Assembly: GCA_018896595.1 (NCBI GenBank)
Contig: JAHIME010000023.1
Coordinates: 1-46,210 of the forward strand
Source: Patescibacteria group bacterium
GTDB taxonomy: Bacteria; Patescibacteriota; Patescibacteriia; Patescibacteriales; VMTK01
Length of the DNA stretch: 46,210 nt
Direction: 5' to 3'
Under the pieces are notes generated by a model. It saw only the letters and a program-made list of their open reading frames with translations. It searched no databases and was not told the origin of the DNA. Numbering within the stretch: position 1 is the stretch's first letter; each line of letters opens with the position of its first letter. Of the stretch, positions 13,292-46,210 are shown piece after piece. Both the position numbers and the translations under genes were made by a program.

Positions 13292-13315
13292 AACGATTAT
13301 GCTAAAATTATAAGT

Positions 13316-15439: not shown

Positions 15440-15454
15440 CCTCAAATTTATATA

Positions 15455-16061: not shown

Positions 16062-16087
16062 TAATGATTTAAAAATTTTAAAATATT

Positions 16088-16300
16088 ATGCATAGAACAC
16101 AAGTCGCATCATCAAATATCCGCTCAATTGGCTACGATCCCGCATCGTCTATTTTAGAGGTGGAGTTTACTTCCGGCGACGTATATCAGTATTTCAATGT
16201 GCCGAAGCATTTGTATCAGCAATTTTTACACGCGTCATCGTACGGGCAGTTTTTAAACGATTATGTTAAATATAATTATCGTTATCAGAAAGTAAGTTGA
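16088..16300 (+). CDS. KTSC-domain protein
   Basis: 70 aa. The pattern SSNIRSIGYDPASSILEVEFTSGDVYQYFNVPKHLYQQFLHASSYGQF matches the KTSC domain. Confidence 0.75.
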   Translation: MHRTQVASSNIRSIGYDPASSILEVEFTSGDVYQYFNVPKHLYQQFLHASSYGQFLNDYVKYNYRYQKVS

Positions 16301-16305
16301 TTTTT

Positions 16306-17088: not shown

Positions 17089-17289
17089 CTCTAAAATCAG
17101 TGATCTTACGATCAATTACATTATATACACAAAATTTAAAAAAAGCAAGAAAGAATAGGTTCTGGCAGGAGGGATGTTGGGAACTAATAGATAAATTAAA
17201 TTAGTAGAAAAAATCATTTTCTATTAGAAAATTGTTAGAAATTTGGCTAAAAATAGAGATGCGAATAATTAGTAAAATCTAATAGTTTT

Positions 17290-33526: not shown

Positions 33527-33552
33527 ATTAAAAATTAAAAATTAAAAATTTT
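33525..33552. repeat. intergenic heptamer repeats (AAATTAA x3 plus AAATTTT)
   Basis: Read directly from the sequence between the two GT2 genes. Confidence 0.6.
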
Positions 33553-33559
33553 TGGCTGT

Positions 33560-34447
33560 ATGGATTTAAGCATAATCATCGTTTCTTGGAACGTAAAAGA
33601 AAAATTAAGAGAAAATTTATTGGCTTTGTTTAAGAGCGAAGGAGATGTAAGCTTTGAGATGTTTGTCGCGGATAATAATTCCCAAGACGGAACCGCGGAA
33701 ATGGTAAAAAATGAATTTTCATTTAACGGGGTGAAGTTAATCGCTAACGCGGAAAACTTGGGATTTGCCAAAGCGAACAATCAGGCGATAAAACAGGCGC
33801 GAGGAGAGTTTATTTTACTGCTTAATCCGGATATGCGCGTTGTTCTGCCGGACACTTTAAGCAATATGGTAAAATGGATGCGGGAGAACAAACAGGCATC
33901 GGTTGCCGGCTGCCGTCTTATAGACGAACAGGGCAATACAATAAAACATGTAAGAAAATTTCCAACAGTTTGGGATCAGTTGGCGATTGTTTTAAAACTG
34001 CCGCATATTTTCCCAAATGTATTGGATAAATATTTGCGAGTTGATTTTGATTACAGCAAAGATGCGAAAGTTGACTCGGTGCGCGGAGGGTTTTTTATGT
34101 TGCGAAGGACCTCACCCCGACCCTCTCCTCGTGAAGGAGAAGGGGAGTTATTAGATGAGCGGTATTTTCTTTGGTTTGAAGAAGTTGATTTTTGCCGGCA
34201 GGTTTATGAAAAAAAAGGAGAAGTTTGGCATACGCCCGCGGCCGAGTGCGTTGATTATGTGGGCCAAAGCTTTAAACAATTGCCCCGCGGCAAAACGCAG
34301 AAATATTTCCGCGATTCAATGTTGAAATACTTTAAAAAATGGCATCCGGCATGGCAGTATCGGCTGTTAAAGCTTGTCTGGCCGATCGGCATGCTTATAA
34401 CGCGGTTGGGCGAAAAAACACATTTAAAAAGCAAGGCGAATACATAA
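33560..34447 (+). CDS. glycosyltransferase family 2
   Basis: LSIIIVSWN, DNNSQDGT, NLGFAKANN and LLLNPD. Confidence 0.8.
   Translation: MDLSIIIVSWNVKEKLRENLLALFKSEGDVSFEMFVADNNSQDGTAEMVKNEFSFNGVKLIANAENLGFAKANNQAIKQARGEFILLLNPDMRVVLPDTLSNMVKWMRENKQASVAGCRLIDEQGNTIKHVRKFPTVWDQLAIVLKLPHIFPNVLDKYLRVDFDYSKDAKVDSVRGGFFMLRRTSPRPSPREGEGELLDERYFLWFEEVDFCRQVYEKKGEVWHTPAAECVDYVGQSFKQLPRGKTQKYFRDSMLKYFKKWHPAWQYRLLKLVWPIGMLITRLGEKTHLKSKANT
34111..34147. repeat. palindromic element read through in frame (SPRPSPREGEGEL)
   Basis: CCCTCTCCT-cgtga-AGGAGAAGGG with the outer pair CTCACCCC / GGGGAG. Confidence 0.65.
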
Positions 34448-34568
34448 TAAAAGAAATTAAAAGACGCTTATGCATTATAATCCGTTTGCTTAAAAGAGTG
34501 ATGAAGATAAAATAATTTTAAACTCCTTATTAAGCATTATGATTCTTAGTTAGTTTACATTTTTATAT

Positions 34569-35297
34569 TTATCGCTCGCAAACGGTTTTGCATTTATTAT
34601 TCTCGCACTTGATATTCAAATTTGCACAAAGTAGGCAACCATAAGTACAATTCGAATGAAATGAATTAAACAGACGATTAATTCGTGCTGCTTCGTTTTT
34701 ATTTACATAAGCAGAACAACCAAAAGGACATTTATTCCCAGCATCTTTACAGTCCAAATCAACATGGCAATAATTCGCCTCTTTAATTTCATGTTTGATA
34801 TATAACTCTTTTATTTTTTGAGATGCAATTAGCAAAGTTGATAACACTATAATAATTGCCAGCAAAACAAAAGTTATTTTTTTTTCTGATTGCGTGAATA
34901 AGCGAACAATTAAATAAAAAAACAAAATAATAGACAAATAAAAAATAAAATTTACAAGCGGATACATGAATAAACCGCCTGAAATAAAATTCCATTTCCC
35001 GATTAAGATTCCGTCAACTACATCCTGGATATAATGTATTAAATAAAAATGCGGCCAGCCATGGACGGTCTGCATAATCGTACCGCCGATTTTCTTAACT
35101 ATAACTAACAAGGATAACGAAGTTAAAACTAAAGCTCCCAAAACCATAATCAGCTTGTCCGCTTTTCTGATCATAAACTTCTTTTTTTTATACAAAAACA
35201 GCGATATAAATAATAAAACAATTGAAATATAAAATATTTGTTGTACTGTCATAATTTTATTAATTATTTTAATCAAAAGCAAGGAGCAACATTCCAA
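34569..35297 (-). CDS. multi-TM membrane protein with a Cys-rich C-terminal domain
   Basis: Hydrophobic ORF with 13 Cys in the last ~70 aa. The real start may be the Met at 35252. Confidence 0.6.
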   Translation of the reverse strand: MECCSLLLIKIINKIMTVQQIFYISIVLLFISLFLYKKKKFMIRKADKLIMVLGALVLTSLSLLVIVKKIGGTIMQTVHGWPHFYLIHYIQDVVDGILIGKWNFISGGLFMYPLVNFIFYLSIILFFYLIVRLFTQSEKKITFVLLAIIIVLSTLLIASQKIKELYIKHEIKEANYCHVDLDCKDAGNKCPFGCSAYVNKNEAARINRLFNSFHSNCTYGCLLCANLNIKCENNKCKTVCER

Positions 35298-35355
35298 GCC
35301 CGTAAAAATTTACCGCAATATAAACCGCCAATAAAATTTTCATGGCTTTTATTTT

Positions 35356-36096
35356 TTAGTCAATAAAATGAAAAGAGTCGGAAATTTTTTGATCATAACA
35401 ATCATCAAAGCTTAAGCCCAAAATGCATTCCTGGCCAGCGTGCCAAAAGGCGGCTTTTTTGTATACAGAGCTATATTTCAGGTGGTATTTATAATTTATC
35501 GGACATTTTGTTGAACTCATATCTTTTCCATCACCCTTTATTTTTACATCATATGTGCCGGAAAAATTTGTTTCATATTTTTCTTGGTAATTGCAGCCCT
35601 CCCCGTATTTTTGTTTTATTAATTTATCCAGTTCATTTTCATTATCAATATCCAAGACAATAATATGCCAAGGAAATCCATAATTAACTTCACCTTTATA
35701 TTCCGGTATGAAAGTATTTTGCGTTTTAATAAACTGGCCGCTTTGCCAATCAAATCTCTGTTCATATTCCTGATTAAGGTAAAAATTATTGTCTTTGACA
35801 AAAATTTTATTGGCTATTAGCGCGTCAGAATCAGTCATGCCTTCCGGCAAGCCGGTCCAATATTTGCCGTGAATTGATTTTTCCGGGTACTTTATTTCAA
35901 AACCGTATTCTTCATTTTGATAAGTTATCCATTTAATATCAATATCATCAAATTTATTCTCTACATGGCAATTATAAAACGGCGGCCGGGTAAAACAGCC
36001 GTCGCCTCTTTTGAGCCAATAAATGCCAACTGATATTATCAGTAAAAACAATACTGCCGATATGATTAAAATTTTATTCTTCATTTGGCTATCCAA
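35356..36096 (-). CDS. membrane-anchored/secreted hypothetical protein
   Basis: N-terminal hydrophobic segment ILIISAVLFLLIISVGIYW. No recognisable domain. Confidence 0.6.
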   Translation of the reverse strand: MDSQMKNKILIISAVLFLLIISVGIYWLKRGDGCFTRPPFYNCHVENKFDDIDIKWITYQNEEYGFEIKYPEKSIHGKYWTGLPEGMTDSDALIANKIFVKDNNFYLNQEYEQRFDWQSGQFIKTQNTFIPEYKGEVNYGFPWHIIVLDIDNENELDKLIKQKYGEGCNYQEKYETNFSGTYDVKIKGDGKDMSSTKCPINYKYHLKYSSVYKKAAFWHAGQECILGLSFDDCYDQKISDSFHFID

Positions 36097-36159
36097 CCGT
36101 TAGATTTTAGAGTTAAGCGGTTTTAAGATTAATAAAATCGTTATTCCTTTTCATTCATG

Positions 36160-37044
36160 CTATTTTTTTTGCGCGACGCCTATCTTCCACACACCTTTTT
36201 CAAGGAAGGCCTCTATTGTTTGGCGGCTTGCCTTATTAATCAAATTAGAGTGTGATATTTTATTTATTTTCGCGTATTCCGCGAGCGTCATAATATGCGC
36301 GCCCTCCAGATACGCGAGCCTCTTGTGGTAACTGTTGGTAAGCGCTTTTCCTACTATTTCTTCCATAATAGTAGTCGCGCCTTTTTCATCAAATTCTTTA
36401 AACGCTTCGTAATATTTCTTTCTGTCAATAAATTTTATGTTTATTGGAACAAACCCTTCTCGTATTAACAAATAGTTGTTTATAACACGCCCAATGCGAC
36501 CATTGCCATCGCAAAATGGATGAGTGTATTCAAAAGCAAGATGCAATCCCGCTATCCTTTTAATTATATTTTCATGACTCGCAGCATTATACTCGGACAA
36601 CATTTTTTTCAGACGACCCGCCACTTCTTTGGGGTTAGGAGCAATATGACTGCCGACACGCACAAATTCATTGTCTTTTCTAAACCTCCCGGCAATATCG
36701 TCACGAATATTTGAAATCAACATTTTATGAAGTGATAAAATTACCTCAAGAGTAAGCTCTTGCTCCTTAGCTCCTTTGTCAATATATGATACAACTTGCG
36801 CGAGATTTTTTGCCTCAAAAATTTCTCGTTCAGTGATATATCTGTCCAAATCTATTTGCAAAAGTATTTTCTCTGTTTCCTCAAGAGTAAGAGTGCTGTT
36901 TTCAATGGCGTTAGAGTTATATACCTGTTCGGCCACCTCCGCCTCGTTCAATAATTTTAACAGCGCCTGTTTGCCAACAGACGCAGTATAATAGCGTTCT
37001 CTTAAACGAGAGATTGTGTTAAAAATATGTAATACTTTTGCCAT
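36160..37044 (-). CDS. Fic/DOC-family protein
   Basis: Fic motif HPFCDGNGRIGR. Confidence 0.85.
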   Translation of the reverse strand: MAKVLHIFNTISRLRERYYTASVGKQALLKLLNEAEVAEQVYNSNAIENSTLTLEETEKILLQIDLDRYITEREIFEAKNLAQVVSYIDKGAKEQELTLEVILSLHKMLISNIRDDIAGRFRKDNEFVRVGSHIAPNPKEVAGRLKKMLSEYNAASHENIIKRIAGLHLAFEYTHPFCDGNGRIGRVINNYLLIREGFVPINIKFIDRKKYYEAFKEFDEKGATTIMEEIVGKALTNSYHKRLAYLEGAHIMTLAEYAKINKISHSNLINKASRQTIEAFLEKGVWKIGVAQKK

Positions 37045-37080
37045 AATTAAAAGTATAAGAAAATTGAATAATCTAAGTTT

Positions 37081-37108
37081 ATTTTATACCCTTTTCACTC
37101 TTTTGTCA
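37081..37108 (-). promoter_or_regulatory. candidate promoter of the Fic gene
   Basis: On the minus strand: TTGACA (37108-37103), 16-nt spacer, TAAAAT (37086-37081). Confidence 0.45.
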
Positions 37109-37110
37109 AG

Positions 37111-37154
37111 ATAACCGTGAAAAACTGTAAAAAAAGAGCGAATTTCACGGTTAT
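37111..37154. repeat. perfect 12-bp inverted repeat abutting the -35 box
   Basis: ATAACCGTGAAA (37111-37122), 20-nt spacer, TTTCACGGTTAT (37143-37154). Confidence 0.7.
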
Positions 37155-37363
37155 GCTTTAATTTTATTTTCCAAGAAATAATTTAATATCATTGTAGGAA
37201 CGCGGACAAATTTCGTATTTTTTAAGTTTGTGGATTGGTATAAAAGCGTAACCGCTTTAGTATTGCCGCCACGAAATAAAAGTAAGAATGTTTTATCCTT
37301 CGGATTAAATATTATTCCTCCCGCGTAAAATATATCCGGTATTTCTTTTTGATATTTAAACAT
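37151..37363 (-). CDS. doubtful 70-aa ORF, possibly a Nudix N-terminal fragment
   Basis: YAGGIIFNPKDKTFLLLFRGGN resembles a Nudix N-terminus, but no Nudix box follows. The ORF overlaps the degenerate attC-like element A0. Confidence 0.3.
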   Translation of the reverse strand: MFKYQKEIPDIFYAGGIIFNPKDKTFLLLFRGGNTKAVTLLYQSTNLKNTKFVRVPTMILNYFLENKIKA

Positions 37364-37420
37364 AAAATTAGAGAGTTACTATTGATAGGTGGAACCGGAT
37401 ATTCCGTGTTATCGGATGTA
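37312..37420. repeat. attC-like element A0 (degenerate left arm)
   Basis: The right arm CCGGATATTCCG-T-GTT-ATCG-GATGTA (37395-37420) is intact. The left arm keeps ATATCCGG, but AAC is replaced by CGC. Confidence 0.45.
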
Positions 37421-37526
37421 TTGCTTTTTTGGGCGTTATCCTTTGGCGATTAGCCAAAATAAAACAAATACTTTTAGGAAGCGGGAAGGCGGAATGACCA
37501 CCTTCCCTAATAAAGAAAGACTACTT

Positions 37527-37718
37527 TCAGAAAGCACCTTGCCAAAAACTGAGCGGTGTCCAGCCCTCCCTTGTGTCAACTGCGCGACGCCTAATCTCTT
37601 CGAAAAATTCAGGTCGCTCTTTCCTCATTACATCAAGTCGTTGCTCAATATCTGGCACGAGCGCCACCAGCAACTGGAAATTGGTGTTTTCTGCGGGTAC
37701 TGCGTTTACATTTGTCAT
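37527..37718 (-). CDS. cassette ORF, 63-aa hypothetical protein
   Basis: Strong RBS on the minus strand (AAAGGAGGAAGGT then ATG). Located between A0 and A1. Confidence 0.6.
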   Translation of the reverse strand: MTNVNAVPAENTNFQLLVALVPDIEQRLDVMRKERPEFFEEIRRRAVDTREGWTPLSFWQGAF

Positions 37719-37798
37719 ACCTTCCTCCTTTGGTTGTTTTTTAACAAACGCCTTTCCGATTTAGCAGCTTCCTAAAAATATTTGTTTTAAAAGAACAA

Positions 37799-37912
37799 TA
37801 TTTCGGCATAACGTATCGGCATATCTGATGTTTTACGAAGCGTAGCGGAGTAAAATATGGGTGGAGGCTTTTGTAAAAAGCCGTAACCAGATATGCCGTG
37901 TTAGCTGATGTA
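37799..37912. repeat. attC-like element A1
   Basis: Left arm TATTTC-GGCAT-AAC-GTAT-CGGCATATCTG. Right arm CAGATATGCCG-T-GTT-AGCT-GATGTA. Inner stem TTTTAC/GTAAAA. Confidence 0.7.
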
Positions 37913-38032
37913 TTCCTTTTCTTTTTTCCGACAGCAGTCGGAATTGTTTTAAAAAATTTTCAAATTTCTTTTTCCGTTTTGGATTTTGGGCAGAGGGGCT
38001 GGGGGTGAATGCCCCGAAGCCAAGACTCCTTA

Positions 38033-38281
38033 TTAATTCATTGTAATTTTAAACTTATTTTCTACCACATTTATTTTAAAGCCATGTGGGTCAGTCCATT
38101 CGCTTCCGTTATTGGCTCTGGTTAAAAATTGATTTAGCGTTGATTGCTCGTCACCAACCGGTTTATCTATTTCCGATTCCGTATATCCGGGGATTTTTTC
38201 TAAAATATATCGAGTGGTTTCTTCCCTTGAACCAAATGAATTGAGATTTGTTTCCAAATTACGTGGTGTTTCGCTAAACAT
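38033..38281 (-). CDS. hypothetical protein (82 aa)
   Basis: ORF 10 nt downstream of the 473-aa ORF in the same cassette. Confidence 0.5.
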   Translation of the reverse strand: MFSETPRNLETNLNSFGSREETTRYILEKIPGYTESEIDKPVGDEQSTLNQFLTRANNGSEWTDPHGFKINVVENKFKITMN

Positions 38282-38291
38282 AAAATTTGAT

Positions 38292-39713
38292 TTAGGTTTT
38301 TAGATTTAACTTAGTTTTTAAATAATTTAATGCTTCAAGCGCTGTTTGGTCTTTTGTCGGATCAAATAATTTGTCACTCACGGTCGGATCCACCAATAAA
38401 GTGCTTCCCAATTCGGCGATAAATTCACGTTCTCCATCCCACGGATGTCCTGCGTTCGTTTCATCTTTCATACGATGCTTTAGCCGGAACTTATCTAATT
38501 GCGAACCCTGATATTTTTGTCCCATGAGTTGCAAATAGTATTTAGAAAGCTGAACATCAATAAAGCCTTTTGACTGCCACCTTTCGCACGCCTCATGTCC
38601 AGTAGACTGTAATAGATCACCAATTTCGTGACTATGTTCGATATAGTCGCTGGAAAAATAAATCGAATTTTGCGTCCACCCTGCCTCGTTCGCGTCGCCG
38701 GAGCTAATATCAACGTACATAATTGGTTCAGCGCTAAAAGCTTGGTTTAAATGTTCTAAAACTCCAGCCATTTTATCAAATTTATCTCGGTGGCGATCAA
38801 GAAATTCCGCAAAATTGAAATCGGGCTTGATCGAGCCAAAAACTATTCCGTTTTTTGCGGTATAGTGTCGAGCAGAGAGTGTTTTTTCTAGATATCGTTC
38901 TTTATCTCCAGTTTGTACTGCCAATCTGGTGGAAACAATATCTCGTTCAAACCATTGAGTTTTTTCTGGAGGGAAATTTTGTATTCTGTTTTGTAAGTTG
39001 TCCAAAATTTCAGCGGATAGATGATGGTCAGCAAGCAAACCTGCTATTTCTATAATATTGTAGGTACCCATTGTTTGGCAGATTTTATCCCCCGAATCGG
39101 TCATGTATTGTTTTAGCAAAGTAGAAATTTTTTCGCCCTCAAATGGAATGCCCGCTCTTAAACCAGTCAAAACGGCTCTTGTTCTTAATTCATAGCCATA
39201 CTTTTGTTCGTCGGCTATTTTTAGCATTTTGTTTCTTGCTTCAGGAGATTTATTTTTTCCTAAAGAATCAATTGCCGTATTGCACAAATAAACATTTTCG
39301 TGATTTATATCTATAAAATCAGCTATCAATTGAACGCTATTGGGTTGTGAAATTTCGCCTGCGACTGAAAGAGCGGCTTGAATTTTTTGATAAGCAAAGA
39401 GTTGTTTGGCTTTTGCCTCGCCCATTTCTTCGTCGGCTCTATTATAATTTTCGCCATTCAGAACCGCGGTAATTTGGTATAGATCAATGCGGTTGTTATT
39501 ATTCAAAAGCCAATCAAGATTTTCTTGGAGTTTTTGTTTCCCATTTGAGCTTGCCAGATGATTCAATTCTTCTAAAGCCGTTGATAGAGTGCCTTGAATT
39601 TTAGATATTTCACCTCGTTCTTTTGTTTCATAAATATCAAGAAGGATAGCGGTAGGACGCTCTTTTTTTGTTTCCGTTTCAATTGCGGTTAAAATATTTT
39701 TTTCTGGATTCAT
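38292..39713 (-). CDS. hypothetical protein (473 aa)
   Basis: Long uninterrupted ORF with no domain recognised by eye. Confidence 0.7.
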   Translation of the reverse strand: MNPEKNILTAIETETKKERPTAILLDIYETKERGEISKIQGTLSTALEELNHLASSNGKQKLQENLDWLLNNNNRIDLYQITAVLNGENYNRADEEMGEAKAKQLFAYQKIQAALSVAGEISQPNSVQLIADFIDINHENVYLCNTAIDSLGKNKSPEARNKMLKIADEQKYGYELRTRAVLTGLRAGIPFEGEKISTLLKQYMTDSGDKICQTMGTYNIIEIAGLLADHHLSAEILDNLQNRIQNFPPEKTQWFERDIVSTRLAVQTGDKERYLEKTLSARHYTAKNGIVFGSIKPDFNFAEFLDRHRDKFDKMAGVLEHLNQAFSAEPIMYVDISSGDANEAGWTQNSIYFSSDYIEHSHEIGDLLQSTGHEACERWQSKGFIDVQLSKYYLQLMGQKYQGSQLDKFRLKHRMKDETNAGHPWDGEREFIAELGSTLLVDPTVSDKLFDPTKDQTALEALNYLKTKLNLKT

Positions 39714-39723
39714 AATATTTGAT

Positions 39724-39757
39724 TAAATCGTTTTCGTAGCGGAGCGGAGAAAACACC
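39724..39757. repeat. 34-nt block identical to 43891-43924
   Basis: taaatcgttttcgtagcggagcggagaaaacacc contains the hairpin GTTTTC-N13-GAAAAC. On the minus strand it lies 10 nt upstream of the start codon at 39713. Confidence 0.8.
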
Positions 39758-39842
39758 ATATACCCCCCCCTAAATAATTAAAAATAAAATTTGTTCATTA
39801 CAGAAAAGTGTCGCCCGCCACAGCGGGCGAAAAAGAAAAGCA

Positions 39843-40051
39843 TATTTCATATAACGTATCCGAGTATGCGAAGTTCGCTTTTCGGATTTAATGAATTAAT
39901 TATGTTAATTGGCTTAATCCTATTTTATCGCACTATTCCTGAAATTACCACCTATCGGAGAAAAGCGAATTTGGGTCGAGAAAATTTTTCACTCCTTGAA
40001 ATATAACTGATGAAAAATTTTTGAGCCGCATGTGCCGTGTTGTCTGATGTA
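39843..40051. repeat. attC-like element A2 (long, 209 nt)
   Basis: Left arm TATTTC-ATAT-AAC-GTAT-CCGAGTATGCG. Right arm CGCATGTGCCG-T-GTT-GTCT-GATGTA. Inner stem TTCGCTTTTC/GAAAAGCGAA. A 29-nt block (39969-39997) is identical to 46179-46207. Confidence 0.65.
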
Positions 40052-40095
40052 TTTTTTCATCTTCTATTTTATTGGCACAAACTTTGCTTGTTCTA

Positions 40096-40176
40096 AAAGA
40101 AAATTCGATTTTTAAATTTAAAGTTTTTGTTTTGCCGAATGGCAAAACGATTATTTGGGGGCAATTTAATTTTTTA
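40096..40176. repeat. left copy of the ~80-bp inverted repeat bracketing the AlaX-like gene
   Basis: A 33-nt block (40096-40128) and a 19-nt block (40149-40167) are exact reverse complements of 40901-40933 and 40872-40890. A private hairpin GTTTTGCC-gaat-GGCAAAAC lies between the two blocks. Confidence 0.85.
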
Positions 40177-40180
40177 TTTT

Positions 40181-40849
40181 TTATTTGAGTTTGATGTTTA
40201 TGGTTGGCATGCCTTTCTTCTTATTATATTCAATCTCAACTATGCCTATCTCAGAAATGTTTTTAACATGCGTTCCGCCACAAGGAATTTTGTAACCAAG
40301 ACATTCCCACCAACGAAATCCTTTCTTTTCAGTATCAGGATAAGTTTTAACATCCGCCCCTGATGAAATAGCCTCACGAAAAACCTCATTCGTTTTTTCA
40401 ACTAGCTCGAGCGTTATTTCATCGCTTTCATATCTATTAAAAACAAAGCCGTCTTGAATATCTGAGACTTTCGGAAACGGCAAAGACTTGCCAGCAGTTT
40501 TTTCAAGTAAGCAATGATGCAAATGAGCAGCAGTGTGTAGTTTCATCTGTCTGTTGCGAAATTCCCAGTTAAGTTTGCATAACACCTTTTGACCTTTAAC
40601 ATCTTCCGGAATCTTTTCGGTCGTTATTATGATAATGCCATCTTCGTTGTAGGGGTCTTTTAAAGTATCAGTAACATTATAATTTGAGCCATTGATGACA
40701 AATGTACCCTTATCACCTTTCTGTCCTCCCCCACGAGGGTAGAAAATATTATCAGCGACCTGAACACAGTTCTGGTCATTTTCGGTAAATGCCCCCGTGA
40801 TAGTTGTGTTGATTTCTGTTAAATACTGATCTTCGTAAAATTTGTGCAT
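40181..40849 (-). CDS. AlaX-like protein (alanyl-tRNA synthetase editing-domain / metal-dependent hydrolase family)
   Basis: HTAAHLHH (HxxxH) and CGGTHV motifs. Confidence 0.8.
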   Translation of the reverse strand: MHKFYEDQYLTEINTTITGAFTENDQNCVQVADNIFYPRGGGQKGDKGTFVINGSNYNVTDTLKDPYNEDGIIIITTEKIPEDVKGQKVLCKLNWEFRNRQMKLHTAAHLHHCLLEKTAGKSLPFPKVSDIQDGFVFNRYESDEITLELVEKTNEVFREAISSGADVKTYPDTEKKGFRWWECLGYKIPCGGTHVKNISEIGIVEIEYNKKKGMPTINIKLK

Positions 40850-40862
40850 AGTTTTTGTGAAT

Positions 40863-40933
40863 TAAAAAATAAAATTGCCCCCAAATAATCCGCGAAGCGG
40901 AAAAACTTTAAATTTAAAAATCGAATTTTCTTT
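40863..40933. repeat. right copy of the inverted repeat bracketing the AlaX-like gene
   Basis: See 40096-40176. The private central hairpin here is CCGC-gaa-GCGG. Confidence 0.85.
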
Positions 40934-40982
40934 CTTTGTTTATATCACCAAACTCCTAAAATTACCACCAAAGATGAAAAAA

Positions 40983-41094
40983 TATTTCAGACAACGTATC
41001 GCTATATCCGAAGTTTTTTAGAGCGAAGCGAAAAAGAATTTGCGCGTAGGCTTTCGAAAAAGCCGCAACCGGATATAGCGTGTTATATGATGTA
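40983..41094. repeat. attC-like element A3
   Basis: Left arm TATTTC-AGAC-AAC-GTAT-CGCTATATCCG. Right arm CGGATATAGCG-T-GTT-ATAT-GATGTA, with perfect 11-bp stem pairing. Confidence 0.7.
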
Positions 41095-41222
41095 CATGTT
41101 TTCCTTTAATCCGCCTTAGGCGGATTGCTCTAAAAAAGAATTCAATTTTTTTTCGTTTTGGGCTTCGGGAAGAGGGGTTAGGGGTGAATTCCCGAAGCCC
41201 AAAACTCCTTAGCGTATTTGTT

Positions 41223-42317
41223 TTAAATTTTTCTGTATCTAGAGCTTCTGCCAAGTCCGATTCTTTCTATCTTTTTAAGTTTAAGCAAAACATCCAAAGC
41301 CTGTTTGACGGTCGGCCTGGCTATGCGAGTATTTTTAATAATATCGCCCGTACTGGTTTCTTTGATCTTTTCAATATATTGCCAGATAATAAGCTGTTTT
41401 TCTGACAAGATTTTTTCTATATTTTCTTTGGATAAAAGTTCAACTGCCATTTGCGATTGCTTTAAAACAATATCCAAGAAAAAATCAAGCCAGGCGGTGA
41501 TGCTTTCTTCTTTCGAGCCGATAGTTTTTTGGCTTCTTCTAAGTGAAACATAGTAGTCTGGTTTATTGTCTTCTACTAATTTTTCATGAGAAACATACGG
41601 CATATATTGATAGCCCGCATGCAATAAGAGTAAATTTGTAAGTACGCGAGACAGTCTTCCGTTGCCATCAGAAAAAGGATGAATCTTTAAAAACTCAACT
41701 AAAAAATTGCCTATTACCAATAGCGGATGATATTTGTTTTCTTTTAGCGCTTTTTGCGTCCAGTCGGTCAGGTCGCACATTTGGCCCGGAGTAAGATAGG
41801 CCGGCGAGGTATCAAAAAGAATGCCGATTGACTGTCCGGCTTCATCTATCATATGAACCTTATTTTCTCCTTTTTTATATTCACCACGATGCCCTTGATC
41901 CTTTTCCGCGTATTTCAGAAGTTCTTTGTGAAAATGCTTAACTAGGCTTTCGTTAAACTTTAAGCCTTTCCATGAATTAAAAACATTTTCCAGCAGTTCA
42001 TAATAACCTTTAACTTCTTGCTTGTCGCGATTGGTAAATTTTTGTACATTAATGCCTCGCATTAATTTTTCAATATCTGCGTCGGATAGGCGAGAGCCTT
42101 CAATACGAGTAGATGCGCCGGTTGAAGTAATCAAAACCGACCGCTTCAATCTTCCTAGAACTTGCGGGCTAAGGCGAGCGCCTGATATCCATCGTCCCTT
42201 TAGCTCATCAATTTTAGCTATTTTAGAAACGATGCTGGCTGGAATATTCTCAATCCGTTTTGAAAAATTGTCTGAAGTTATATGTTTTTCTGTTGTTTTA
42301 TTAGTGTTTTTTGACAT
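41223..42317 (-). CDS. Fic-family protein with a C-terminal wHTH-like tail
   Basis: Fic motif HPFSDGNGRLSR. Confidence 0.85.
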   Translation of the reverse strand: MSKNTNKTTEKHITSDNFSKRIENIPASIVSKIAKIDELKGRWISGARLSPQVLGRLKRSVLITSTGASTRIEGSRLSDADIEKLMRGINVQKFTNRDKQEVKGYYELLENVFNSWKGLKFNESLVKHFHKELLKYAEKDQGHRGEYKKGENKVHMIDEAGQSIGILFDTSPAYLTPGQMCDLTDWTQKALKENKYHPLLVIGNFLVEFLKIHPFSDGNGRLSRVLTNLLLLHAGYQYMPYVSHEKLVEDNKPDYYVSLRRSQKTIGSKEESITAWLDFFLDIVLKQSQMAVELLSKENIEKILSEKQLIIWQYIEKIKETSTGDIIKNTRIARPTVKQALDVLLKLKKIERIGLGRSSRYRKI

Positions 42318-42396
42318 AAATTTAATTGGATATATTAACTATATCCAATTATAGCCAATTATTGAGGATTGGTCAATTTTTGAAAGTGAGAAAAAA

Positions 42397-43023
42397 TTAA
42401 TTTATTTTTTCTATTTTAGTTGCAATTATTGTCGGTATTGGTCTATTGAGGCCGTCCACACCTAAATCAATATCCTCAATTTCCCCATAAATAAGAAAAG
42501 TATCTTTATCCCAATCAATTTTTTCAGGATTAAGACCAGAATATGTTTTAAACATGTAACTTGGCCAAAAACCATCCCAGTTAGTCTGTCTTTCGGGACT
42601 ATTTTCGGTAGCTAAGTTTACTGGAAATAGCCAAAACCAATCACAATCTGCACGTGAATCTGCATTTTTGTGCTTATCGTCAATAATGCAAAATTTAATT
42701 CCATCAATTTGACTATATCTATTAGCGACCCTTCCCATCCATTGTACATTTTTTCCTCTATAAATACTGTGCTTTTCCATTTCACCATCAGAATTTTTTT
42801 CTTGAATAAAAGAATTTTCATTAATAACGTCTGCATAACTTAAAACAGTGGTAGAAGCTAACATTTTGTTCGCGTTTATATTATTAACCAGAGTTGACTG
42901 CTCATTTTTTTCATTATCTAAAGTAAAATTTAAATTTTTAGAAATAGAACAGCCAGCGGATAATAAGGGTAAAATCAATAAAATAAGAAATCTTATCATA
43001 ATTGCATAGTAATTTATTGCCAT
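42397..43023 (-). CDS. secreted protein or lipoprotein, function unknown
   Basis: N-terminal signal-like segment ending LLSAGCS (lipobox-like). Confidence 0.6.
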   Translation of the reverse strand: MAINYYAIMIRFLILLILPLLSAGCSISKNLNFTLDNEKNEQSTLVNNINANKMLASTTVLSYADVINENSFIQEKNSDGEMEKHSIYRGKNVQWMGRVANRYSQIDGIKFCIIDDKHKNADSRADCDWFWLFPVNLATENSPERQTNWDGFWPSYMFKTYSGLNPEKIDWDKDTFLIYGEIEDIDLGVDGLNRPIPTIIATKIEKIN

Positions 43024-43026
43024 ATA

Positions 43027-43884
43027 TTAAAAGTTAACGAGTATGTTTTTATAATAAAAAATCATATTTTTTAACCATCTTTGAATATAGTTTGAACTTG
43101 CGACTCTTTCTCTAATCCAATCTATGCCTATAATTTTTTCAGACAGGCTTGATCTTTCTTGAGTAGATATTAAATATCCATCTATGTTTAATTTTTCATT
43201 ACTTTTTAATTTTACTTGCGCCCAAAATGTTTTTTTAGGTAAGCCAAAATAATTATCAGCTAATCTTACTCTTAAATCATAGTCCTTAAGAGTCCCTCCC
43301 CGGAACGACGAGCAAAGGCAATTATTCTCGGAAAATATTAAAAAAATCAAAGTTTCAAATTCAGTTGGCGATAAATATTTATAAAAATTATTTAAATCTA
43401 TACTAATTTTTTCGTTATTTATTAAAGCAACGGCAAATTCATTTTCAGAATTGTTTAATTTTTTTATTGTTCCTCTGTTATATTTTTGATTAGCATTTAT
43501 ATTAGAAAAAAATTCCGGTAAATCAATTTTTCTATAATGAGCTATTAGCTTTGAATTAATTGATTTGGGTAGGTCGCCATCGCCAGGATAAATATATTCA
43601 TTAGGGCCATCTTCAATCTTTCGGCCAACCTTTTTTAAACAATAAATTTTTTCTTCACAAAAAATCCAAAAATTTACATCGTTCTCCTTTTCTAAATTAT
43701 AGAATGTTTTTATTTGTTCTTTTGCTTGGTTAGATTTTTGTTGGTTTATTCCAATACTAACTTCATCCGCTCTCCATTTTCCAAAATATATAGATAATGG
43801 GCAAACTTCACCGCATCCAGTGTCGAGCCATGTTTTAAAGCCTTCATTTCCAATTTGAAATTTAAAATAGTAATTATTCATCAT
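43027..43884 (-). CDS. hypothetical protein with a C-terminal Mrr-like PD-(D/E)xK nuclease-type motif
   Basis: PTEFETLIFLIF...GGTLKDYDLRV...WAQVKLK resembles the Mrr catalytic domain pattern (FE..l, D.GiDl, QvK). The start was set at the MM at 43884, because the upstream extension runs into the conserved 34-nt block. Confidence 0.55.
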   Translation of the reverse strand: MMNNYYFKFQIGNEGFKTWLDTGCGEVCPLSIYFGKWRADEVSIGINQQKSNQAKEQIKTFYNLEKENDVNFWIFCEEKIYCLKKVGRKIEDGPNEYIYPGDGDLPKSINSKLIAHYRKIDLPEFFSNINANQKYNRGTIKKLNNSENEFAVALINNEKISIDLNNFYKYLSPTEFETLIFLIFSENNCLCSSFRGGTLKDYDLRVRLADNYFGLPKKTFWAQVKLKSNEKLNIDGYLISTQERSSLSEKIIGIDWIRERVASSNYIQRWLKNMIFYYKNILVNF

Positions 43885-43890
43885 AATTAA

Positions 43891-43924
43891 TAAATCGTTT
43901 TCGTAGCGGAGCGGAGAAAACACC
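43891..43924. repeat. 34-nt block identical to 39724-39757
   Basis: Same sequence. On the minus strand it lies 6 nt upstream of the start codon at 43884. Confidence 0.8.
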
Positions 43925-44005
43925 CTATTTCCCCTCATTAAATTAATTAAAAAACAAAATTGAATTCTTTTTTAAGAGCTGGGCGAAGCCCAAAAGGAAA
44001 ACATG

Positions 44006-44144
44006 TATTTCATATAACGTTTCGGCATCATCCGAAGTTTTTGTGCAGTGAAACGGAACAAAAATTTGGGAGAAGGAATTTTTCTTACCTTGAATTATAA
44101 ATGTGCAAAATTTCCGAACCGGATATGCCGTGTTCTGCGATGTA
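44006..44144. repeat. attC-like element A4
   Basis: Left arm TATTTC-ATAT-AAC-GTTT-CGGCAT-C-ATCCG (one extra C). Right arm CGGATATGCCG-T-GTT-CTGC-GATGTA. Confidence 0.7.
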
Positions 44145-44149
44145 AAAAT

Positions 44150-44575
44150 TTAACTTCGTCCCAATATAAACAACCCGACTAGCACCACAACTATACCAGC
44201 AATTTTAGCTGCGCTAATAGGCTCCCTGAGTATAATTATGCCAAGAATTACTGCAATTACTATTGTGCCTCCTACCACCAATGGATTGCCTATTGAGATT
44301 GGCGCGTTCTTTGAATACATCGACAGGTAGAAAATTTCTGCGGCGCCCGCAAACAACCCAGCCACAATTGGCAACAACAAACTGCTCTTAGTGAAAACCA
44401 AGCTTTGGCCAGACATTTTCAAGTATATCGTTGAAATTATTGCGACCAACAAAGAAGCTCCAGCTATAAACATATTAGCCAAAGCGGGGCTGAATTTATC
44501 CGCAGAAATTTTCGTGAAGAAGTTGTAGAAGCCGAAAGTTGAAGCAGCTAAAATTGCGTAGGTTAACCAATTCAT
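44150..44575 (-). CDS. small EamA/DMT-like membrane protein
   Basis: 141 aa with 4-5 TM helices and a single EamA-like repeat. The stop codon lies 5 nt from A4. Confidence 0.65.
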   Translation of the reverse strand: MNWLTYAILAASTFGFYNFFTKISADKFSPALANMFIAGASLLVAIISTIYLKMSGQSLVFTKSSLLLPIVAGLFAGAAEIFYLSMYSKNAPISIGNPLVVGGTIVIAVILGIIILREPISAAKIAGIVVVLVGLFILGRS

Positions 44576-44603
44576 AATATTTTTAAGTGAGAAGTTAAAT
44601 TTT

Positions 44604-44757
44604 TATTTCGCAGAACGTTTAAGTATATGAGAAGTTTCGCCGACTTCCTTATTATTCTATCATAAAGGAGGCGAAATTTGGGTGAAAGAAAAGTGCAACC
44701 TTTGAAAATTTATAACGCACTTTTTCTTGAACCTCATATACTTTGTTAGGCGATGTA
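44604..44757. repeat. attC-like element A5
   Basis: Left arm TATTTC-GCAG-AAC-GTTT-AAGTATATGAG. Right arm CTCATATACTT-T-GTT-AGGC-GATGTA. Inner stem TTTCGCC/GGCGAAA. Confidence 0.7.
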
Positions 44758-44775
44758 TTTTTGAAAAATTATTTC

Positions 44776-45474
44776 TTATAAAACTTTTATTTCTTTTTTG
44801 TATTCTTCAATTTCTTTCGGTAAGTTTTTTAAACTATTTTCGGAGATAATATTAAAAATATTTTTATCACCACGATCTTGTATCGTATAATTAACCAAAA
44901 TATCTTTAAAATAGTTCGTGCATATTGCGTCTACAAGTCCTTCTTTTTCGATGTGTGTTAATTCAAACTTTTTTATAATACATTCTTCGATTCCTATGTG
45001 GATGATTTCATGTACTATTGTATGCAGAGGATTGCGTTTAAAAATGCCGCCCTCATTTGTTTTTATAATAATATTACCTTCTCTACAATTATATGACCCG
45101 CCTGGGCCATAAGCCGTCAGTCTAACTTCATATTTTGGAAAAAGTTTGAATCCCCAATTTCTCCACTCTCCCATTTTTTTTATTGCTTTTTCGATTATAT
45201 CAACTTCTTGGATTACGGTTTTTAATCCATTTTTGAAATATTCTAAAGAATATACTTCCTTTCTAAATATATCTTTCGCTTCCTTCGCGTCCAATGTATT
45301 AAGCAAATCTAAATCATTTGAAATCTTTAAAAAAAATGGATGATCGGGGATTGGTATTTTATAGCCATGCTCATTATAGAATGACATTTTTCCAAAGACT
45401 TTAAAAAGATAATCAAATTCTTCATCGATAGTTTGTGCGCGAATAATTATTTTATAGTCCGTTCTGATACTCAT
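44776..45474 (-). CDS. putative zinc metallopeptidase (HExxH)
   Basis: HTIVHEIIHIGIEE contains HEIIH. No other domain recognised. Confidence 0.55.
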   Translation of the reverse strand: MSIRTDYKIIIRAQTIDEEFDYLFKVFGKMSFYNEHGYKIPIPDHPFFLKISNDLDLLNTLDAKEAKDIFRKEVYSLEYFKNGLKTVIQEVDIIEKAIKKMGEWRNWGFKLFPKYEVRLTAYGPGGSYNCREGNIIIKTNEGGIFKRNPLHTIVHEIIHIGIEECIIKKFELTHIEKEGLVDAICTNYFKDILVNYTIQDRGDKNIFNIISENSLKNLPKEIEEYKKEIKVL

Positions 45475-45519
45475 ATTAAAAAAAGAAATAAAAGTTATTG
45501 AATTTGTAATTTTTCAAAA

Positions 45520-46035
45520 ATATTTTGCCTAACGTATCTCGATATCTGAAGTTTTTATTTTTCTCCTATGTTTTATTAGTAAAGAAAAAAATAAAAATTT
45601 GGGTGTAGCTAAAAAATAATTTATTTTCTCGTTCCAACCAAATCAAAGCCTTCAAAATGCACAGCGTCATCCATGAAAACCTCGATGACCTTATAGACAC
45701 CCTTGGTATACATAATGTTGTTATCTACAAAATGGGTGGCTTCTAAAATGACGATGCTCGCTTTGGGACGTGATAAAACCTCATTACCCTGAGTTTCAAT
45801 TAACGGAATAGATCCGTACAGCCAATAATTACGCTGGTCGCGTTTTAGAAAATCATAAGTTTGTCCTGCACGAAGGTCTTCAGGAATACATTCTTCGATT
45901 TTTCGACGGCCTTGTTTATGCTCCGAAATATTTCGTAAGGCCAGGTCGGGATTGAACTCAACTTTGATACCCATAAGCGTAAGAGAAAATAAATTATTTT
46001 TTAGCGTAACCAGATATCGCGTGTTAGATGATGTG
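45520..46035. repeat. attC-like element A6, with arms about 460 nt apart and an ORF in the loop
   Basis: Left arm TATTTT-GCCT-AAC-GTAT-CTCGATATCTG (45520-45547). Right arm CAGATATCGCG-T-GTT-AGAT-GATGTG (46011-46035). 10 of 11 stem positions pair. Confidence 0.55.
45621..45974 (-). CDS. hypothetical protein (117 aa) located inside element A6
   Basis: The start was set at the Met at 45974. The track start at 46061 would read across the arms of A6 and A7. Confidence 0.5.
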   Translation of the reverse strand: MGIKVEFNPDLALRNISEHKQGRRKIEECIPEDLRAGQTYDFLKRDQRNYWLYGSIPLIETQGNEVLSRPKASIVILEATHFVDNNIMYTKGVYKVIEVFMDDAVHFEGFDLVGTRK

Positions 46036-46058
46036 CCGAACTCCTTATTTCTTTTCGG

Positions 46059-46210
46059 CATTTCATCTAACGTCTACGCATCATCTGAAGTCCCGCACCT
46101 TTAATGGCAGAAAACTTTGATTAGCGTATTATTTTGATTAACGAGTTATATTTGGATTATACCACAGGCTGGTGCGGGATTTGGGTCGAGAAAATTTTTC
46201 ACTCCTTATT
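46059..46210. repeat. attC-like element A7 (left half only, truncated by the window end)
   Basis: Left arm CATTTC-ATCT-AAC-GTCT-ACGCATCATCTG-AAG. Inner stem TCCCGCACC/GGTGCGGGA. Followed by the ATTTGGGTCGAG... block shared with A2. Confidence 0.6.

Follow-up and report, generated by a model that had tools for sequence, protein, structure and literature searches.

A chromosomal cassette array of integron-like organisation in a Patescibacteria genome and its probable link to a XerA-like recombinase

An integron (for example, the Vibrio cholerae chromosomal integron; VchIntIA-VCR, PDB 2A3V) comprises a tyrosine recombinase gene transcribed away from co-oriented, mostly single-gene cassettes. The primary site lies beside this gene and shares its terminal triplet with the cassette sites. 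Each cassette is closed by an imperfect palindrome delimited by ...AAC and GTT.... The box behind GTT is complementary to the one ahead of AAC in the following site, which is what circles closed at G|TT would give. The palindrome folds better on the non-coding (bottom) strand and the cargo is of accessory type. The IntI-specific domain of the recombinase contacts extrahelical bases (2A3V structure).

Archaeal XerA resolves chromosome dimers through a single 28-bp duplex dif site. Xer-exploiting elements (CTX phage and other IMEX) use a Xer-family enzyme without the IntI domain, which integrates foreign DNA beside a chromosomal site. They are phages, islands, or modules with 28-bp duplex XerC/XerD sites at their ends, and are not known to form polar single-gene arrays in which each gene has its own 110-210-nt covarying hairpin. 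The CTX phage substrate is a single-stranded DNA hairpin with exchange of one strand, and the pdif modules of Acinetobacter plasmids are small gene modules between recombinase sites. Multicopy intergenic imperfect palindromes also occur as REP/BIME and MITE, but these are dispersed genome-wide in both orientations, without neighbour-complementary boxes.

The window (the whole stretch analysed, 46,210 nucleotides of a Patescibacteria contig) includes eight co-oriented hairpin elements on the + strand, between minus-strand genes at 37312-46210 (Table 1). All lie where an earlier note on this DNA had placed them. We consider it likely that the region from 37.3 to 46.2 kb is the recombinase-distal part of an integron-like chromosomal cassette array, with a XerA-like recombinase exchanging strands at AAC/GTT.

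Table 1. Array elements, cassette genes and repeats in the window
Feature	Position	Strand	Remarks
A0	37312..37420	+	Degenerate, distal-most attC-like element; left R box lost
A0 right arm	37393-37420	+	CCGGATATTCCG-T-GTT-ATCG-GATGTA; intact
Cassette ORF	37527..37718	-	63 aa; no family match
A1	37799..37912	+	Short class, 114 nt; profile E=4e-29; left variable box 5 nt (GGCAT); right GTT-AGCT-GATGTA
Conserved module	37913..38032	+	From A1 to stop codon of next cassette gene
Two-gene cassette	38033..39713	-	82 aa + 473 aa
A2	39843..40051	+	209 nt; left TATTTC-ATAT-AAC; right GTT-GTCT-GATGTA
A2 right-hand flank	40039..40179	+	Inverted repeat of 40860-40995
AlaX-like cassette gene	40181..40849	-	222 aa; tRNA_SAD domain
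A3	40983..41094	+	112 nt; left TATTTC-AGAC-AAC; right GTT-ATAT-GATGTA
Three-gene unit	41223..43938	-	
Fic/DOC protein	41223-42317	-	In three-gene unit
208-aa protein	42397-43023	-	In three-gene unit; apparent hydrophobic N-terminus (by eye)
Unknown, 285-303 aa	43027-43884/43938	-	In three-gene unit
A4	44006..44144	+	139 nt; left TATTTC-ATAT-AAC; right GTT-CTGC-GATGTA
EamA-type small transporter	44150..44575	-	141 aa; cassette gene
A5	44604..44757	+	154 nt; left TATTTC-GCAG-AAC; right GTT-AGGC-GATGTA
232-aa cassette protein	44776..45474	-	HEIIH motif; no family match
A6	45520..46035	+	515 nt; left TATTTT-GCCT-AAC; right GTT-AGAT-GATGTG
117-aa ORF	45621-45974	-	In loop of A6 second hairpin
A7	46059..46210	+	Left CATTTC-ATCT-AAC; cut by window end

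On the + strand the left half of the palindrome is TATTTC-NNNN-AAC, followed by a 3-4-nt bulge (GTWT) and an 11-bp covarying stem. The interior is formed by two internal hairpins with conserved junction bases between them, and the right half by the returning stem and T-GTT-NNNN-GATGTA. This agrees with the arms originally described, except that the left box of A1 has a fifth nucleotide and only the right half survives in A0. A6 is an element as proposed, now seen to enclose an ORF within its second hairpin, which is closed by a perfect 23-bp stem (45608-45630 with 45983-46005). Read on the coding (minus) strand, a cassette opens with TT-NNNN-GAAATA; one to three genes follow, and the palindrome of 110-210 nt closes it. 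The gap between A6 and A7 is 23 nt only (an 'empty' cassette), and the cassette of the HEIIH protein has 55-nt inverted repeats at its ends (82% complementary). Counterparts of the module beside A1, 72-92% identical, occur in more than 30 other genomes, and a second copy is present at 41095-41222.

With one mismatch tolerated, the right-arm pattern GTGTTNNNNGATGTA has seven matches in the window (0.38 expected), a number reached in none of 100 shuffles. The left-arm pattern TATTTCNNNNAACGT has six (1.76 expected). Matches to a profile derived from 59 homologous elements of other genomes are confined to 37383-46126, all on the + strand, with none in the first 37 kb. No Rfam family matches the elements. 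The cargo includes the Fic, AlaX-like and HExxH proteins first suggested and the small transporter, which is of EamA type, but no Pfam match (E<=0.01) supports an Mrr-like nuclease for any cassette ORF. Two Fic genes had been noted; one is in the array and the other (36160-37044) is beyond its recognisable part.

The variable NNNN boxes link neighbouring elements. Read directly, the right-arm box never complements the left arm of its own element (0/6), and at five of the seven junctions in the window it is complementary to the left arm that follows (gtct/agac, atat/atat, ctgc/gcag, aggc/gcct, agat/atct), exactly as first counted. The locus is also present in another assembly (L001, GCA_018895445.1), which reaches 779 nt past the window. 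There A7 ends at window-equivalent 46257 with the right arm GTT-ATCG-GATGTA and is followed by a NUDIX gene and the left arm TATTTC-CGAT-AAC, a sixth correct junction. True failures concern two of the eight junctions in and beyond the window. The complementarity, at first described for NNNN, continues for about 20 nt past it, and the two junctions that break the 4-nt rule retain this extended pairing. Complementarity between the ends of the AlaX-like cassette extends to about 140 nt, with one perfect pair of 33 nt, because the right-hand flank of A2 recurs inverted on the other side of the gene. Further copies also follow the rule: full complementarity is seen at 56 of 105 junctions from other genomes, compared with 7.8 expected (maximum of 18 in 2000 shuffles), while complementarity within an element is found in 7 of 150 cases. 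The remaining 49 junctions, which are not fully matched, include some false arm calls.

Genome comparison provides the breakpoints. Loci L084 and L106 are similar up to TATTTC-CGA(T/C)-AAC and diverge beyond, whereas L106 and A6 differ before AAC and are similar from it onwards (89.5% identity rightward from 45531). In this three-genome comparison the cassette breakpoint falls exactly at the AAC triplet. In addition, A1 and its two-gene cassette match L111 (82% identity over 2066 nt) and the match stops at the AAC of A2. Together, the neighbour rule and this breakpoint require strand exchange at the triplet. In keeping with the earlier proposal, they support attC-type behaviour of the elements, with each gene-plus-element unit acting as a cassette and the conserved AAC/GTT triplet as the point of joining.

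A pattern scan of one genome per species identified at least 119 stretches with the element. Among the matches listed, it is present in more than 95 other genomes, nearly all of them CPR/Patescibacteria MAGs, and at least 102 unique elements passed a stem check. The invariance of the arms in this set is partly by construction since the scan pattern demanded them, but retrieval through the recombinase, which did not, recovers the same arms. Paired cells amount to 95.2% compared with 82.1% in shuffles (none of 500 as high) and at most 53.6% with partners slid. Compensatory changes occur in 20 of 30 pairs, including 10 of the 11 main-stem pairs, and two invariant G.T wobbles exist on the + strand only. 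When both strands are folded with DNA parameters, the + (non-coding) strand gives the more stable structure in 99 of 102 elements (mean -23.8 versus -20.5 kcal/mol), and the AAC/GTT box is paired in 80 elements on this strand versus 21 on the other. No locus in other genomes has elements on both strands. In 51 of 53 cases the longest inter-element ORF is encoded opposite to the elements, and the median element spacing is 1122 nt.

Among the matches listed, the ORF family that recurs most often in the element loci is a tyrosine recombinase of about 270 aa (19 of 119 listed loci). One member of this cluster (L016) is a different integrase, 30% identical, which adjoins a tRNA gene. In related CPR genomes the recombinase is located at one end of the array, corresponding to the end right of 46210 where it had been suspected, and is transcribed away from the cassettes. 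About 100-150 nt before its gene lies a lone half-site, TATTTC-NNNN-AAC-T, and after this come two copies of the TATTATRCGAAGT motif. Recognisable half-sites are mostly about 90-150 nt 5' of the start codon (farther in L011 and L023) and are missing from some of the other 18 loci of the cluster. Their NNNN complements the last right arm in eight loci and misses by one base in four. The association is also found in the opposite direction of search: among metagenome homologues at least 52% identical, six of seven have the half-site at -89 to -146, and no half-site adjoins homologues of 40% identity or less. In recombinase-centred loci, element matches are always upstream of the gene and on its strand, with none downstream. 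The half-site region is the equivalent of attI, and the order of recombinase, half-site and array is the intI/attI/cassette layout.

An IntI-type integrase with its extra domain had been anticipated. The associated recombinase is not of this type. It carries PF13495 and PF00589, scores 212-250 bits with NF040815 (near the cut-off of this model), and its best solved relatives are XerA (5hxy and 4a8e). With the NCBIfam integron-integrase model TIGR02249 it reaches 203-215 bits in two stretches, below the cut-off of 265, which true IntIs from the same search clear easily. The IntI-specific domain is absent, since there are 15 residues where VchIntIA has 58.

A protein so close to archaeal XerA in sequence, length and domain make-up could be the housekeeping chromosome-dimer resolvase, with the adjacent half-site as its dif and the cassettes as small Xer-exploiting elements (like IMEX elements or pdif modules) heaped there. 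The family is very large, well conserved and annotated 'XerD' in its sources. GC skew and gene strand flip in the window at about 34.5 kb, only 3 kb away from the array's distal end, which could be a terminus. CTX phage inserts its folded single-stranded genome at dif by means of XerCD, and both xerS and xerH adjoin their dif sites. However, GC skew keeps its sign at the recombinase and half-site in the two 20-kb recombinase-centred loci tested (L121 and L201), and the genes of L201 run in the same direction on either side. The half-site region, judged by eye, is no palindrome of two like arms but an R box with NNNN set by the adjacent cassette, together with two direct repeats, and resembles attI. 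Unlike that of XerA, the gene adjoins an array of structured sites. Each mobile unit is one gene with a structured site of 110-210 nt that folds in a strand-specific way, rather than a phage or island with 28-bp duplex sites. We judge this explanation unlikely. It overlaps with the cassette reading, of which it could be the evolutionary origin, and is a rival only in taking the site for an ordinary duplex dif at the terminus.

Alternatively, the elements could be plain attC sites in a CALIN that is served by a true IntI encoded elsewhere, with the XerA-like gene a coincidental neighbour. This would account for the triplets that end the palindrome and for a complementarity that obeys the integron rule. 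Integrase-free CALINs are common in MAGs (PMC9668308). This is very unlikely, given that the XerA-like gene and a matching half-site recur at the same array end in independent genomes and in both search directions. No IntI-length homologue is present in the recurrent families of the 119 listed element loci, the arm motifs are absent from the two true IntI loci scanned (L155 and L160, from the metagenome search), and true IntIs are only 31-35% identical to the recombinase. We give still less credence to the elements being passive repeats between genes (REP/BIME, MITE, terminator hairpin) or structured parts of the mRNAs, with no role in recombination. The elements are indeed intergenic hairpins with conserved internal motifs, and an RNA-level function is conceivable for the conserved 5' and 3' modules of the cassettes. 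Nevertheless, the copies are clustered, polar and recombinase-linked instead of scattered like REP. The strand exchange required at AAC and the lack of an Rfam match also stand against this, and the G.T wobbles and the better fold of the non-transcribed strand argue against an mRNA structure.

In the reading that we favour, an integron-like array used by a XerA-like recombinase, the enzyme would cut out and insert cassettes with strands exchanged at the AAC/GTT triplet. This would leave complementary NNNN and some 20 further bases at both cassette ends, and the palindrome stem would remain with the gene upstream of it. The XerA-like recombinase at the array end in related CPR genomes probably catalyses this reaction. 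If integrons are a guide, recombination probably takes place on a folded single strand of the site, namely the non-coding ('bottom') one, with cleavage 5'-...AA|C. Without the IntI-specific domain, such a mechanism is not guaranteed: in integrons, this domain is credited with enabling recombination of folded single-stranded attC sites (PMC4792948, PMC7790495). The window itself, searched in its larger ORFs and in all six frames, contains no tyrosine recombinase, as already noted, and nor does the 779-nt extension. Both assemblies break inside repeats, which is why the recombinase of this array was not found. Its gene would be expected to the right of 46210.

The array shares with integrons the features outlined at the outset, including accessory-type cargo (here Fic, NUDIX, transporter and unknowns). 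It differs in several respects besides the recombinase. The 13-bp R box is conserved in its outer half (TATTTC/GATGTA), and the cassette-specific pairing extends about 20 bp further. The 4-nt box is just loosely RRRY. The stem has no extrahelical bases, only the asymmetric bulge on the cleaved arm, and the interior, instead of a free variable loop, forms a conserved three-way junction whose bases are nearly invariant. The sites measure 110-210 nt, some enclose an ORF, and the host range is CPR. Our literature search found no published description of such a system. The terms 'CALIN' and 'sedentary chromosomal integron', used in the earlier note, suit the appearance of the array and not its family, in view of the missing domain and the score of the associated recombinase. 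This recombinase belongs to a very large and conserved family and may therefore have a housekeeping role in addition to that in the array. The array functions like an integron, yet is outside the integron family as defined.

Reading 37000-46210 of the window confirms, all on the + strand, the eight copies of an imperfect palindrome (A0 to A7, numbered by coordinate) that the earlier note had placed there. The right arm, GTGTTNNNNGATGTA, has seven matches in the window with at most one mismatch (0.38 expected) and the left arm, TATTTCNNNNAACGT, has six (1.76 expected). With a profile of 59 homologous elements from other genomes, window matches are confined to 37383-46126, on the + strand only, and the first 37 kb give none. 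The AAC and GTT triplets are present in every copy that retains the arm concerned. The inter-element ORFs of substantial size all run on the minus strand. The cargo proposed for them is recovered in part: Fic, an AlaX-like protein (tRNA_SAD), an EamA transporter and an HEIIH protein are recognised, and the other inter-element ORFs have no Pfam match. Elsewhere in the window, the larger ORFs make up a restriction/defence block and a set of core genes (GAPDH, [FeFe] hydrogenase with its maturases, the CCA-adding enzyme, and genes for rhamnose and for glycosyltransferases).

The table collects the coordinates of individual features. The low-GC block is probably a defence island. The three extra genes past the last recognisable element may be old cassettes with decayed sites.

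Coordinates of features in the window and in related loci (L001, second assembly of the window locus; L006 and L067, loci from other assemblies; L201, a Wolfebacteria locus)
Feature	Sequence	Position	Strand	Content
Phd/YefM antitoxin	window	11554-11913		
Low-GC block (0.32-0.37)	window	12182-19971		PIN_12 protein, N6/N4 DNA methylase, NYN-domain protein, ResIII/type III restriction helicase
Flip of gene strand	window	33500-35500		+ strand genes to 34447, minus strand from 34569
Three extra genes past the last recognisable element	window	34569-37044	minus	unknowns of 242 and 246 aa, second Fic protein
3' module (~120 nt)	window	37913-38032; 41095-41222		between cassette stop codon and element
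Conserved leader	window	39724-39774; 43891-43941	+	directly upstream of cassette start codons
Exact 29-nt repeat	window	39969-39997; 46179-46207		in A2 and A7, respectively
Element A6	window	45520-46035	+	encloses an ORF
ORF-enclosing element	L006	2406-2878		
ORF-enclosing element	L067	3048-3530		
Loop ORF	L201	8148-8344	opposite	
Compound/nested element	L001	1-170		
Compound/nested element	L201	7718-9900		

The only other assembly of this locus (GCA_018895445.1) contains the window as the reverse strand of JAHIOJ010000001.1 and reaches 779 nt further. This extension completes the right arm of A7 (GTT-ATCG-GATGTA). A NUDIX gene follows, then another left arm, TATTTC-CGAT-AAC, before the contig terminates in a compound element, itself a repeat. 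The window stops 3 nt after the A7 copy of the exact 29-nt repeat that A7 has in common with A2, and its assembly probably broke at this repeat.

Related elements were sought by scanning one genome per species with the pattern TATTTC-N4-5-AACGT-N80-110-TGTT-NNNN-GATGTA, which gave at least 119 stretches. Among the matches listed, nearly all carriers are MAGs labelled Patescibacteria or CPR, from lineages including Uhr-, Moran-, Falkow-, Peregrini-, Peri-, Gracili-, Magasanik- and Kerfeldbacteria. About two dozen of the matches listed fail a stem check, and some are plainly due to chance. True elements also occur on contigs with non-CPR labels (L073, L056, L025, L039, L046 and others), namely Woesearchaeota, Methanoregula, Chlorobiaceae, Bacteroides and 'uncultured Gammaproteobacteria' (one an 886-kb 'chromosome'). 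We suspect that these are mis-binned or mislabelled CPR; if any such label is correct, the system extends past CPR. The same pattern gave four matches in 2.9 million viral contigs, all by chance, and these contigs contained no profile hit and no recombinase of the kind described below. The plasmids searched contained no element, and their best relative of this recombinase is 41% identical.

The variable 4-nt box (NNNN) of each arm behaves in the window as the earlier note had claimed. It never complements the other arm of its own element (0/6), and in five of seven junctions the right-arm box is the exact reverse complement of the next left-arm box. The 779-nt extension supplies a sixth correct junction (ATCG in the right arm of A7, CGAT in the new left arm). 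The rule also extends to other genomes: among the matches listed, 56 of 105 junctions are fully complementary (7.8 expected; at most 18 in 2000 shuffles of the partners), as against 7 of 150 comparisons within an element. In integrons the crossover falls at G|TT, so that an R' box pairs with the R'' box of the following site and not with that of its own; the same arrangement is found here. The RYYY/RRRY consensus is kept only in part, frequent boxes being AGCT, ATAT, ATGT, AGGC and ATCG.

Complementarity is not limited to this box. A repeat finder shows inverted repeats of 25-55 nt spanning each gene unit of the window, and the two flanks of the AlaX-like gene are complementary for ~140 nt apiece, with one perfect pair of 33 nt among them. 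In 102 cassette units among the matches listed, complementarity continues without a break for a median of 19 nt past the 13-bp box, and for at least 20 nt in 41 units (five in mismatched controls). The cassette-end palindromes reach far past the R box.

The genes between the elements also behave as cassettes. Among the matches listed, polarity is uniform: within a locus all elements are on one strand, neighbouring elements have a median spacing of 1122 nt, and in 51 of 53 intervals the longest ORF runs on the strand opposite to them. Entire cassettes recur in other genomes. A1 and its two genes are 82% identical to L111 over 2066 nt, and this match stops at the AAC of A2. The match of A6 to L106 (89.5% identity) begins at the AAC of A6. 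L084 and L106 are alike through TATTTC-CGA(T/C)-AAC and then unrelated, while L106 and the window are unrelated before AAC and alike from AAC on. This three-genome junction is the clearest case: it puts a breakpoint at AAC, and its simplest explanation is strand exchange at or within the triplet. An all-against-all BLAST of the loci for homology ends at AAC placed 10 of 106 ends within 25 nt among the matches listed. It was too noisy, because divergence of the non-coding flanks already cuts HSPs off at the ends of genes, and the explicit three-genome junction was therefore used instead. Four assemblies of one Wolfebacteria locus (L201-L204) were also compared for cassette polymorphism, and the differences were deletions within repeated modules in the oldest assembly only, most likely assembly artefacts.

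Two further sequences recur around the cassette genes in dozens of genomes. A conserved leader, TAAATCGTTTTCGTAGCGGAGCGGAGAAAACACC (+ strand), directly precedes several cassette start codons in the window as well as the first cassettes of L079, L089, L092 and L075. More than 30 genomes share the ~120-nt 3' module at 72-92% identity, and the genes beside it in these genomes are unrelated.

The 59 short elements align well even outside the scan pattern, with the junction bases GA(T/A)G, (A/T)TGGGTG and GTAACC among the matches listed. Their consensus fold has 30 pairs. Among the matches listed, 95.2% of its cells are paired (82.1% in shuffles, with 0 of 500 reaching the observed value; at most 53.6% when the partners are slid), and compensatory changes are found in 20 of the 30 pairs; in the main (inner) stem, 10 of 11 pairs have them. 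Invariance of the outer helices is in part imposed by the scan pattern; the same arms are found in loci retrieved through the recombinase, a retrieval that does not require them.

The two strands of the element are not equivalent. Two invariant G.T wobbles occur only on the + strand, the non-coding strand of the cassettes, among the matches listed. Folding with DNA parameters gives the + strand the lower energy in each of the four window elements tested and, among the matches listed, in 99 of 102 elements (computed means of -23.8 and -20.5 kcal/mol), and the AAC/GTT box is paired in 80 of its minimum-energy folds among the matches listed, compared with 21 for the other strand. This better predicted fold of the non-coding strand argues for a structure of single-stranded DNA rather than of mRNA. 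The elements have no extrahelical L-box bases, the feature that sets strand choice in integrons, and the inner stem is continuous. The sole asymmetry is a bulge of 3-4 nt (GTWT versus T) that separates the R and L boxes of the AAC arm. An Rfam scan of 34-46.2 kb (E<=1), a database from which the IntegronFinder attC model is absent, gave only a chance match to a miRNA hairpin, so the element matches no Rfam family.

Some elements are more elaborate. Nine of 148 among the matches listed (~6%) contain an ORF of 60-152 aa within the loop of the second hairpin, A6 being one; others are found in L006, L067, L106, L034 and L072, and their closing stem is long and often perfect. The loop ORF of L201 is on the opposite strand. 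In the compound or nested elements of L001 and L201, an R-arm-like motif, TGTT-NNNN-GA(T/A)GT, lies inside a larger hairpin. Both L201, near the recombinase, and L001, at its end, also contain 'empty' cassettes of 23-35 nt, and one 190-nt module is present three times in L201.

No tyrosine recombinase is encoded in the window, as had been noticed earlier (the larger ORFs were scanned and six-frame tblastn covers the remaining ones). ORFs of at least 120 aa from the 119 loci among the matches listed were clustered, and the most recurrent family (19 loci among the matches listed) is a tyrosine recombinase of ~270 aa. L016, which was at first in this cluster, was dropped: its integrase is a different one, 30% identical and located beside a tRNA gene. 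Read in the orientation of the elements, the array alternates elements with minus-strand gene(s) and closes with a lone half-site, TATTTC-NNNN-AAC-T, beyond which comes the + strand recombinase gene. This gene is mostly ~90-150 nt from the half-site and points away from the array. Among the matches listed, the half-site box complements the final right arm of the array in eight loci, and in four it is one base off. Downstream of its AAC-T is the motif TT(A/T)TTATRCGAAGT, which resembles the inner-stem sequence of the elements and has a second copy ~40 nt nearer the recombinase gene. Since the recombinase-proximal site is a bare half-site, the element body must accompany the gene that precedes it on the coding strand, an arrangement that gives the integron order of gene followed by attC. 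A crossover at G|TT on the coding strand would correspond to AA|C on the + strand.

The reverse search gave a similar picture. The half-site is found at -89 to -146 in six of seven metagenome homologues that are at least 52% identical, and in four of these the preceding right arm matches it; none is found beside metagenome homologues that are at most 40% identical. In loci centred on the recombinase, every element match is upstream of the gene and on the same strand, with no element in up to 10 kb downstream. Related loci have an attI-type site beside the recombinase gene, which is divergent from the cassettes. In these loci the recombinase is located where the earlier note had guessed, at the array end that corresponds to the right of 46210.

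In Pfam the protein matches Phage_integrase and an N-terminal SAM-like domain. The best NCBIfam model among the five proteins scanned is the archaeal XerA type, NF040815 (cut-off 220 bits). Four array-linked recombinases straddle this cut-off (212.5, 219, 225 and 251 bits); L016 scores 201, and more typical XerA-like homologues score 268-281. The closest solved structures are also XerA (5hxy, 4a8e). The family is very large (6340 matches at E<=1e-30), and where source annotations name it they use XerD, integrase or tyrosine-type recombinase. With the integron integrase model TIGR02249 (cut-off 265), the array-linked recombinases score 203-215 bits in two stretches, skipping model positions ~180-240, compared with 409-500 bits in one stretch for five true IntIs (311-313 aa) from the same metagenome search. 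Aligned with VchIntIA (2A3V), residues 5-178 correspond to 6-182 and residues 194-270 to 241-317. The gap between the two pieces, 15 query residues versus 58 in VchIntIA, is the position of the IntI-specific domain. The expectation of an IntI with its extra domain therefore fails: the array-linked enzymes lie below the TIGR02249 cut-off and are short at this position.

Repeats of the REP/BIME or MITE type are dispersed, in both orientations, beside unrelated core genes. Here, in contrast, each locus keeps a single orientation (99 loci among the matches listed), and elements are absent from 1-37 kb of the window and from the 6-10-kb flanks downstream of the recombinase. A Xer/dif system of the XerA type has an enzyme of about 260-300 aa with no extra domains and one duplex dif site, palindromic with two like arms, at the replication terminus. 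The array-linked enzyme may also resolve dimers. A conserved XerA-like gene adjoining its site is like the lone Xer genes beside dif and the elements that integrate at dif, and both GC skew and gene strand flip in the window at ~34.5 kb, near the distal array end. However, two 20-kb recombinase-centred loci (L121 and L201) have no skew change at the recombinase, the genes on either side of it in L201 run the same way, and the half-site region consists of an R box and direct repeats without a palindrome of two like arms. The ~34.5-kb flip could be a replication terminus or just two convergent gene blocks. With the skew seen in the window, replication would use the folding (+) strand of the elements as leading-strand template, as has been reported for the Vibrio chromosomal integron.

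Integrons are the textbook gene-capture system. There as here, the cassette site is an imperfect palindrome with AAC (R'') at one end, GTT (R') at the other and paired inner L boxes, and the CPR system shares the integron layout and the inferred crossover point. It fails the defining test of the IntI domain. The archaeal-integron report (PMC9668308) defines IntI by this extra domain, located around patch III (Messier & Roy 2001, cited therein). The integron-type reading thus stands for the working of the array and the location of the recombinase, and falls for the enzyme. Among surveyed complete genomes, 93% of complete integrons are in Gammaproteobacteria and CPR are unmentioned (PMC9024848). 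In full-text searches, mainly of literature outside the subscription journals, we found no paper linking integrons or attC to CPR lineages and no description of such a CPR cassette system. In our judgement the chances are about even that this is a widespread, undescribed CPR/Patescibacteria analogue of the integron. Its recombinase, XerA-like and with no I2/extra domain, would take up single-gene cassettes at a conserved AA|C, using large sites folded into a three-way junction.

If so, it would represent either an ancestral Xer-like state that preceded integron integrases or an independent invention of the same solution, and the long cassette-end palindromes and loop ORFs may hint at how cassettes arise. 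Two reports regard the gain of the I2 helix/extra domain by IntI as the step through which a Xer-like enzyme became able to recombine sites in folded single-stranded DNA (PMC4792948, PMC7790495). A natural cassette platform run by an enzyme without it would be a direct test of this idea: either folded-site recombination needs no extra domain, or the CPR sites are used differently. The conserved arms, because of which CPR assemblies break at array loci, are also a simple probe. CPR bacteria make up a large share of bacterial diversity and have tiny genomes, and to our knowledge few routes of gene exchange have been described for them; the arms give access to the accessory gene pool of their uncultured members.
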